From a virus (Duplodnaviria > Heunggongvirae > Uroviricota > Caudoviricetes): a stretch of 10,325 bases of DNA. This document shows positions 4,635-5,780 of the stretch, in pieces. The stretch lies in the IMG/VR virus record IMGVR_UViG_2706794669_000004. One strand, written 5' to 3'. The notes below the pieces were generated by a model. That model searched no databases and had not been told where the DNA came from. It saw nothing but the letters and a program-made list of their open reading frames with translations. Made by a program: the position numbers and the translations under genes. Position 1 is the stretch's first letter; each line of letters opens with the position of its first letter.

Positions 4635-5128
4635 TGCTGCCCCCACAAACAGACTTCACGCTCAATCTCACGACGGGTCATCAGCCCTTTCCATTGCTTA
4701 CCGCCAGCATATGTCCAGCGACGTAGCTGGTCACATGCGCCTTTGATATCGCCCTGGTTTATTTTGCGAAGAAGCGTCGATGTTCTGAAATTGCCAGCGC
4801 CCACGTTGTAAACGAACGAGTAAAGAGCGCCGCGCGTTGTTTCCGGTATATCGACTTTGATGTACGGGTTAATTTGTCTGGCGACAGTGGCAAGGTCTTT
4901 ATTCAGGAGGGCTTTGCATTCTGCTTCGGTATACGTTTTACCGAGCATGATGTCTTTTCCGGTGTGTCCGTGACATACAGTCCATACACCAATGATATCT
5001 TTGTATGGTATGTAGCTGACACCTTCCAGACCATCGTTACCACCTGGGCCAGTGATTAACACAGATGCTATAGCAACAGCCCCACCACCAATAGCAGCTG
5101 CAACAGCCTTGCGTAATGATGGCGACAT
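4631..5128 (-). CDS. R: SAR endolysin (phage 21 R-type lysozyme, glycoside hydrolase family 24)
   Basis: 165-aa ORF, ATG at 5126-5128 with GAGAGGTGA upstream; N-terminal Gly/Ala-rich signal-anchor-release segment [23 protein letters not shown] followed by lysozyme domain; Rz/Rz1 immediately downstream. Confidence 0.9.
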
Positions 5129-5150
5129 TATTCACCTCTCGCAGCCTTAC
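5128..5150 (-). pseudogene. 3' remnant of pinholin (S21-like) gene, cut by IS2
   Basis: Minus-strand sequence between the IS2 end and the R start reads (C)GT AAG GCT GCG AGA GGT GAA TAA = (R)KAARGE-stop, matching the recalled C-terminus of phage 21 pinholin; its TAA overlaps the R start (TAATG). The rest of the holin ORF is absent. Confidence 0.5.
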
Positions 5151-5241
5151 TAGACTGGCCCCCTGAATCTCCAGACAACCAGTATCACTTAAATAAGTGA
5201 TAGTCTTAATACTAGTTTTTAGACTAGTCATTGGAGTACAG

Positions 5242-5607
5242 ATGATTGATGTCTTAGGGCCGGAGAAACGCAGACGGCGTACCACACAGGAAAAGATCGC
5301 AATTGTTCAGCAGAGCTTTGAACCGGGGATGACGGTCTCCCTCGTTGCCCGGCAACATGGTGTAGCAGCCAGCCAGTTATTTCTCTGGCGTAAGCAATAC
5401 CAGGAAGGAAGTCTTACTGCTGTCGCCGCCGGAGAACAGGTTGTTCCTGCCTCTGAACTTGCTGCCGCCATGAAGCAGATTAAAGAACTCCAGCGCCTGC
5501 TCGGCAAGAAAACGATGGAAAATGAACTCCTCAAAGAAGCCGTTGAATATGGACGGGCAAAAAAGTGGATAGCGCACGCGCCCTTATTGCCCGGGGATGG
5601 GGAGTAA
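5242..5607 (+). CDS. insC: IS2 transposase OrfA (InsC)
   Basis: ATG at 5242 preceded by GGAG; product [56 protein letters not shown]... (121 aa) with helix-turn-helix and leucine-zipper region; ORF-track start at 5197 is an upstream extension. Confidence 0.9.
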
Positions 5608-5780
5608 GCTTAGTCAGCCGTTGTCTCCGGGTGTCGCGTGCGCAGTTGCACGTCATTCTCAGACGAACCGATGACTGGATGGATGGCCGCCGCAGTCGTC
5701 ACACTGATGATACGGATGTGCTTCTCCGTATACACCATGTTATCGGAGAGCTGCCCACGTATGGTTATCGTCGGGTATGG
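5565..5780 (+). pseudogene. insD: IS2 transposase OrfB (InsD) 5' fragment, truncated
   Basis: Frame -1 relative to insC; product matches InsD through ...[13 protein letters not shown] and then diverges into a short unrelated tail ([12 protein letters not shown]-stop). The catalytic DDE domain is entirely absent. Confidence 0.85.

Follow-up and report, generated by a model that had tools for sequence, protein, structure and literature searches.

Probable loss of an S21-type pinholin gene to an IS2 fragment and a 441-bp deletion in an IS-bounded lambdoid prophage remnant, most probably of Shigella sonnei

What has become of the holin gene in a lysis cassette that has kept its SAR endolysin gene (R) and its two spanin genes (Rz and Rz1), and that carries insertion sequence DNA where a holin would be expected? 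The question is raised by a stretch of 10,325 nucleotides (IMG/VR record IMGVR_UViG_2706794669_000004; hereafter the window, meaning the whole stretch of DNA that was analysed), in which a first-pass annotation, made from the letters alone, had placed IS2 in the position of a pinholin gene. We report that the pinholin gene has very probably been pseudogenised in a strain-specific manner within a cryptic lambdoid prophage remnant, and that the host is most probably S. sonnei. We infer the order of events, the mechanism of the deletion, the consequences for expression and the species from the structure of the locus, its two junctions, the parental state and the identities of the parts, all of which can be read directly from the alignments described below.

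All phage genes of the window are on the minus strand. First in order of transcription is a dnaB-like helicase gene (8759-10150), followed by an 85-aa ORF, rusA (8134-8505), the gene for the antiterminator Q (7758-8165; PF06530, E=3e-52) and an ORF6N/anti-repressor-like gene (6714-7277, coordinates taken from gene calls in relatives). Between Q and the lysis genes ARAGORN predicts an array of four tRNA genes on the same strand (6214-6524), i.e. Gly-TCC, Thr-TGT, Arg-TCT and one with a CAT anticodon (Met or Ile); the same four-tRNA array is annotated in the related locus of E. coli VL40 (L001). Downstream of the lysis genes are genes for an HNH endonuclease (3777-4127), a P27-family terS (3161-3664), terL (1431-3164), ymfR (1237-1419) and a portal gene that ends at position 81.

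The portal gene is cut near its 3' end by an IS4 end (1-98), which constitutes the left boundary of the prophage. The repeat ...CTTAACTGATCGGCATTA ending at position 98 is the IS4 terminal repeat, and in two relatives (L006 and L008) the IS4 transposase gene is next in line beyond this end. The right boundary, just upstream of the dnaB-like gene, is the IRR end of a second, divergent IS2 (10255-10325, minus strand), which matches IS2 nt 1331-1261 at 91.5% of the positions; an IS3-family transposase gene adjoins its counterpart in four relatives (L005-L008). Beyond these boundaries the relatives carry chromosomal genes, bamE-recN-nadK or, after rearrangement, raiA-pheA-tyrA, and non-phage island genes are present on the opposite side of the remnant. 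The packaging module has an intact relative in E. coli, where genes for a prohead protease, a major capsid protein and a connector come after that for a 413-aa portal. At the remnant locus no capsid, tail, protease, integration (integrase), immunity (repressor) or early genes were found, and the contiguous head, tail, immunity and integration modules that define an intact lambdoid prophage are absent. Since the element ends in IS4 and IS2 and the relatives have chromosomal genes beyond these ends, it is a remnant, 10.1 kb in size and IS-bounded, which has the same form in every close relative and had it before the holin was lost.

The three lysis genes that remain are intact, as the first-pass annotation had stated. 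R (4631-5128, minus strand; PF00959, E=2e-45) encodes a SAR endolysin of the GH24 lysozyme family with 158 of 165 residues (96%) identical to R21 of phage 21. Its catalytic triad E35/D44/T50 is conserved in the alignment with R21 and corresponds to the E-X8-D-X5-T motif of SAR endolysins (PMC9239132). In the N-terminal segment comprising residues 8-27, 13 of the 20 residues are Ala, Gly, Ser or Thr, as befits the weakly hydrophobic transmembrane segment that SAR endolysins have behind a short basic N-terminus, and the sole difference from R21 is at position 18 (V for I). Comparison with PDB entries gave E=1e-108 for 3HDE (full-length R21, residues 1-165) and E=2e-109 for 4ZPU ("Lysozyme RrrD"). 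From the 96% identity to R21 we infer that release of R from the membrane would be brought about by a pinholin or by depolarisation. Rz, the inner-membrane i-spanin (4170-4634, minus strand; 154 aa; PF03245, E=3e-52), shares 135 of 153 residues with phage 21 Rz. Rz1, the outer-membrane lipoprotein or o-spanin (4232-4414, minus strand; 60 aa; PF06085, E=6e-20), is embedded inside Rz in another frame, as in two-component spanin systems; it has the lipobox LVVVGC and is identical to phage 21 Rz1 at 55 of 60 positions.

Immediately upstream of R there are 23 nt (5128-5150, minus strand) that read GT AAG GCT GCG AGA GGT GAA TAA, i.e. K A A R G E stop. The suggestion that this represents a holin-like C-terminus overlapping the R start was borne out: the 23 nt are identical at all positions to the holin 3' end of L001 and of a second relative, L005 (CP049169.1), and at 22 of 23 positions to S21, such that alignment with the S21-R21 region of phage 21 identifies them as the genuine 3' end of a class II holin (pinholin) gene of the S21 type. 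Its TAA stop overlaps the R ATG by one base, as in phage 21, and the Shine-Dalgarno sequence of R (GAGAGGTG) is kept within the remnant. The parental holin gene, located directly upstream of R, comprises 216 nt and encodes 71 aa (PF04971, E=1.5e-35 in L005); 65 of the 71 residues are identical to S21-71, and both Met1 and Met4 are kept. An S21-type holin is an ORF of approximately 68-71 aa with two transmembrane domains upstream of the endolysin, and such an ORF is present in L005, as the parental gene, and absent from the window.

The first-pass annotation had also proposed a search for the missing part of the holin; within the window, tblastn with the holin detected only the six-codon remnant, and no second copy of the DNA deleted here (441 bp, see below) is present in the window. 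Apart from the lysis genes, the late strand has a single small ORF for a membrane protein, YmfR (1237-1419). We considered this protein as a substitute holin and rejected it: it belongs to a PHROG family described only as "membrane protein", has no Pfam holin match, and is present alongside essD in intact relatives.

The DNA that takes the place of the holin gene is IS2, as had been noted, with its left end at 5151. Positions 5151-5780 (plus strand) correspond to IS2 nt 1-630 and are identical at 630 of 630 positions to the full 1331-bp IS2 at 16154-17484 of L005, which has a 5-bp target duplication, GACAC, on both sides. This fully identical copy lies 7 kb away in L005; with the other copy nearby, the fragment shares 98.7% identity. 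IS2 position 1 (TAGACTGGCCCCCTG..., TAGACTGGCCCCCTGAATCTCCAGACAACC...), and with it the left inverted repeat, lies exactly at 5151. Genuine insertion produces such a junction, with the terminal nucleotide of IS2 abutting a new site. The orfA (insC) gene is complete (5242-5607; 121 aa; PF01527 HTH_Tnp_1, E=1.8e-19) and is oriented opposite to the late genes. By contrast with the description of a transposase unit in the first-pass annotation, however, only the first 72 codons of orfB (insD) are present (5565-5780), with no rve match. Nucleotides 631-1331, and with these the rve/DDE domain and IRR, are missing, so that the fragment has neither the orfA/orfB frameshift pair nor the right inverted repeat and 1331-bp length of a functional IS2. 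Lacking the rve/DDE domain and the right inverted repeat, the IS2 piece is a dead, immobile 5' fragment.

Three features that had escaped the first-pass annotation define the right side: IS2 breaks off after 630 of its 1331 positions, the phage DNA has lost 441 bp and is not just interrupted, and the junction carries an odd base. Specifically, identity to IS2 ends inside orfB at window position 5780 and phage DNA is found beyond. In a three-way comparison the A at 5781 differs both from IS2, which has G, and from the parental phage DNA, which has T, while the GG at 5779-5780 is common to the two. The right junction reads GGGTATGG-A-CCTCCTCC. From 5782 to 6213 (minus strand) follows what is left of the non-coding DNA that separated the tRNA genes from the holin gene; it is 100% identical to L005 9537-9106, and the deletion ends right beside a GC-rich hairpin (5782-5799). 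Of the 441 bp missing relative to L005 (L005 9538-9978), 193 belong to the 216-nt holin gene and 248 to the DNA upstream of it. The lost 248 bp include the holin ribosome-binding site and a strong terminator-like hairpin (10-bp stem and T run) positioned 40 bp before the holin start. Judged by its sequence, the right junction bears the signature of an illegitimate deletion and not that of transposition.

Outside the IS2 fragment and the junction base, the window is indistinguishable from L005: positions 1-5150 and 5782-10325 are 100% identical to L005 15128-9979 and 9537-4994, respectively. Relatives had identical flanks of 5150 and 4544 bp; the resemblance to L005 is therefore not due to chance. 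The relatives, both chromosomes and contigs, were found by exact-sequence look-up of R, and an intact 71-aa PF04971 holin gene was present directly upstream of R in all eight of the related places shown. The exact R, holin and YmfR proteins are named S. sonnei by the sources and each occurs on about 1000 or more contigs, which suggests that the window most probably comes from a S. sonnei strain or a very close relative, the assignment resting on the names attached to exact-match proteins. In 13 other S. sonnei contigs the sequence breaks 27 nt into the same holin gene, leaving a 62-aa "partial" holin; these breaks may reflect independent disruption, e.g. by an IS hit.

Neither junction was found elsewhere. 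With megablast against 5426 complete E. coli genomes, no record covered more than 55% of the whole window, and for the left junction (101 bp) no place covered at least 80% of the query. By the coverage of the whole window, none of these E. coli genomes is its source. Exact searches for both junction 30-33-mers (CACCTCTCGCAGCCTTACTAGACTGGCCCCCTG and GTTATCGTCGGGTATGGACCTCCTCCCCGG) gave no hit in species-representative genomes and JGI metagenomes, among which there are few Shigella strains. Exact-protein look-up of the ORFs that span the right junction, the 84-aa truncated InsD and a 98-aa ORF (5740-6036), returned no record. On this basis, in collections that do not sample S. sonnei deeply, the holin-loss allele looks strain-specific. 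An IS2 close to rrrD in E. coli STEC384 (H2) was considered as a parallel and set aside; it is a different insertion, downstream of rzpD, and essD is intact.

How might the present arrangement have come about? As in close relatives, the ancestral order would have been Q, the candidate late promoter, the ORF6N gene, four tRNA genes, the 71-aa S21-type holin, the R21-type SAR endolysin, Rz/Rz1, HNH, terS, terL, ymfR and the truncated portal gene. A resident IS2 variant would then have inserted after nt 193 of the 216-nt holin gene (codon 65), with its left end toward R and with transposase genes that read against the late operon. Subsequently, an illegitimate deletion of approximately 1.15 kb would have brought IS2 position 630 next to phage DNA that originally lay 248 bp ahead of the holin gene. 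This deletion would have taken the catalytic half and right end of IS2 (631-1331) and the second copy of the target duplication CTTAC, together with 64 holin codons, the holin ribosome-binding site and the upstream terminator-like hairpin. The proposed intermediate, a full-length IS2 in the holin gene with its right end expected to be joined to CTTACGCTTGTCTTC (...GGGGCAAATCCA-CTTAC-GCTTGTC), was not found. Rapid and ongoing IS-driven pseudogene formation, with IS2 among the resident insertion sequences, has been described for S. sonnei (PMC7373316).

The strongest of the competing explanations, though still an improbable one, is an assembly artefact in which a wrong path was taken through a collapsed IS2 repeat and the true holin gene is intact or carries a full-length IS2. 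The window does resemble a short-read contig, ending 98 nt into IS4 and 71 nt into IS2, the 630-bp fragment is a 100% repeat of another IS2 copy, and the junctions and junction-spanning ORFs lack counterparts, all of which would fit. However, a graph assembler needs reads that contain the novel junction GGGTATGG-A-CCTCCTCC to create it. Moreover, the left junction is at an exact IS2 terminus in a new site, the mark of a real insertion, the 441 bp are absent and not duplicated, and GG microhomology beside a hairpin is typical of real illegitimate deletions.

Slightly less probable again is a multi-step history, in which IS2 landed elsewhere in or upstream of the holin region, a deletion mediated by its left end reached holin nt 193, and a separate event truncated IS2. 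The left junction at the exact IS2 end would agree with this, and deletions starting precisely at an adjacent IS end are a known activity of insertion sequences. But three events are needed where two suffice, making it the less parsimonious course, and there is no trace of another target duplication or of a second junction. As to the number of deletions and the order of events, two-step and multi-step histories are indistinguishable from one sequence.

Insertion followed by deletion, the history that we prefer, would leave a locus from which neither pinholin nor antiholin can be made, with Rz/Rz1 and R, the latter with its own Shine-Dalgarno sequence, intact. What this would mean for lysis depends on transcription across the IS2 fragment. 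A consensus scan detected a promoter-like sequence (7753-7724) and a terminator-like sequence (7662-7646) on the minus strand just downstream of Q, which we regard as the candidate late promoter and its terminator. The IS2 fragment is situated between this pair and the lysis genes; thus the view that IS2, reading in the opposite direction, separates the lysis genes from the late promoter is correct with respect to position and orfA orientation, whereas the polarity that it implied is doubtful. Scanning the late strand of the IS2 fragment revealed no terminator-like site, and the deletion took one away upstream of S. In lambdoid phages, RNA polymerase that has been modified by Q reads through terminators. 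Late transcription is therefore not expected to suffer strong polarity from the insert. The R Shine-Dalgarno sequence is kept in the 23-nt remnant, and R should therefore be translatable from any transcript that crosses the fragment.

Whether lysis would follow hinges on what a SAR endolysin does when no holin is made. The statement in the first-pass annotation that such enzymes normally depend on a pinholin is too strong, since PMC9239132, citing Xu et al. 2004, describes a low rate of spontaneous release of SAR endolysins, by which cells that make no holin still lyse, although later and less synchronously. Were the late operon ever to be transcribed, export and tethering of R would proceed as usual; nothing but the slow, spontaneous exit of its SAR domain from the membrane would then set R free, and lysis would be late and gradual instead of sharply timed. 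On forced expression, then, the expected phenotype is delayed, gradual lysis and not absence of lysis. Of the two outcomes predicted earlier, a lysis-defective or a deregulated prophage, deregulated is a fair description; lysis-defective, on the other hand, holds in a formal sense but has no consequence for phage production, because the 10.1-kb remnant was incapable of making virions even while it had its holin. Any conceivable effect on phenotype would be one on the host, which has lost one potentially lethal membrane-depolarising protein.

We accordingly consider it most implausible that this was a functional lambdoid prophage, still inducible, when a complete IS2 entered it, leaving it lysis-defective or deregulated and its late genes separated from the Q-dependent promoter. 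In favour of this view, the holin gene is indeed replaced by IS2 sequence, R is a SAR endolysin and the fragment does lie between the candidate late promoter and R. Against it, only 630 bp of IS2 are present, IS4/IS2 ends delimit the phage segment, with chromosomal genes next in all relatives, and genes for capsid, tail, integrase and repressor are absent from the locus; moreover, SAR endolysins can bring about lysis unaided by a holin, and the fragment holds no late-strand terminator-like site while the deletion took one away.

It is conceivable, and in our judgement very doubtful, that pinholin loss with retention of R/Rz/Rz1 has been selected in S. sonnei, either through removal of a lethal membrane-depolarising protein from a remnant under Q control or to yield a slow, holin-independent module for autolysis or vesiculation; the contig breaks within the same holin gene are the hint in this direction. 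Should pinholin loss prove to be recurrent and selected in S. sonnei, the locus would gain some added interest. Otherwise its meaning is small, as one more case in which a cryptic prophage of a Shigella-type genome is being eroded by insertion sequences. For annotation it is of value to record that the endolysin has no holin partner and that the IS2 is a dead fragment, and the junctions could possibly serve as a lineage marker, provided that both turn out to be common to a clade.

The process itself is already known, being ordinary IS-driven decay of a cryptic prophage, and a description on the population scale exists (PMC7373316). In that study of Shigella, Hawkey et al. 2020 screened insertion sequences in S. 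sonnei, IS2 and IS4 among them. Strain-variable IS insertion and deletion inactivating a gene is common to their cases and ours, but their targets are core metabolic genes, whereas the target here is an accessory prophage gene. With respect to IS2 (IS3 family, 1331 bp), the fragment is the same as the element over 1-630 (IRL, orfA and the start of orfB) and differs in lacking 631-1331. Phage Mu provides an example of a SAR endolysin and spanins that work without any holin (gp22 with the releasin gp25; PMC9239132). Mu, however, has a dedicated releasin, and nothing of the kind is present in the window.

The closest likeness in the parental state is to the phage 21 lysis cassette (S21 pinholin/antiholin, R21 and Rz/Rz1), with the same gene order and overlaps and, likewise, tRNA genes between the late promoter and S. 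In contrast to phage 21, only the last six codons of S are left in the window, the parental holin begins MYQMEK where S21 begins MKSMDK and is without Lys2, and the packaging module is of the HK97/e14 type (HNH, P27-family terS, terL and ymfR), not that of phage 21. The essD-rrrD-rzpD/rzoD genes of DLP12 are, as here, a cryptic cassette in a non-inducible remnant, and R is annotated "lysozyme RrrD" by the sources and has 4ZPU, the structure of DLP12 RrrD, as its best PDB match; E. coli essD-rrrD-rzpD loci keep the essD holin, which is deleted here. Every component is hence close to a well-studied entity, be it the phage 21 cassette, DLP12-type cassettes or IS2, and the locus holds nothing that is new in kind.

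At the end point of the deletion that accompanies IS2 in place of the pinholin gene, the base A at window position 5781 is either untemplated or mutated, and the end point is directly adjoined by a GC-rich inverted repeat, CCTCCTCCCCGGAGGGGGG (window 5782-5799), which may have favoured the deletion. An ORF6N/anti-repressor-like gene (window 6714-7475) and a set of four tRNA genes (window 6214-6524) separate the lysis genes from the antiterminator gene Q and the candidate late promoter associated with it. Three of the tRNA genes are for Gly, Thr and Arg; the fourth has a CAT anticodon and is Met according to ARAGORN but Ile in the RefSeq annotation of one relative. 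In draft assemblies the R protein (the SAR endolysin) is mostly found on contigs of 5-10 kb, and the example contigs L010 and L011 break near window positions 6756 and 6079, respectively.

Between terL and the portal gene, ymfR (window 1237-1419) encodes a 60-aa two-helix membrane protein (phrog_502, "membrane protein"), and its size and charge distribution are holin-like. As a substitute holin YmfR was rejected, however, since in intact relatives a real holin is present alongside ymfR.

At one edge of the window, the portal gene has lost its 3' end to the terminus of an IS4 copy (window 1-98). In an intact relative the portal protein is 413 aa long and its gene is followed by protease and capsid genes. 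At the remnant locus nothing is left of the head or tail module. At the other edge, a second IS2 copy is represented by its IRR end (window 10255-10325), positioned immediately upstream of the dnaB-like gene, so that the phage segment is bracketed by IS elements; this end shows only 91.5% identity over 71 nt to the variant of IS2 that occupies the holin site. The window thus bounded looks like an entire short-read contig.

The dnaB-like gene of two relatives has an extra insertion of ~1.26 kb (L004, ~4134-5398; L007, ~4136-5400; corresponding to window 9918-9921), and the one in L007 is annotated with an IS3-family transposase gene, which shows more strain-to-strain IS variation within the same remnant. 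Moreover, a 62-aa "partial" holin protein (P0023), which belongs to the cluster of the parental holin, is present on 13 contigs named S. sonnei, of up to 5213 bp; it is without the first nine residues, and hence these contigs end within the same holin gene, at a break 27 nt from its start, where other strains may have acquired an IS of their own independently.

Finally, the parental holin begins with MYQMEK (L005, the parental reference, 9786-9803), and compared with phage 21 S21 (MKSMDK) it retains the dual start, Met1 and Met4, but is without the Lys2 of S21-71. Lys2 adds to the antiholin character of S21-71, and given its absence the balance between antiholin and holin may therefore differ between the parental holin and S21.
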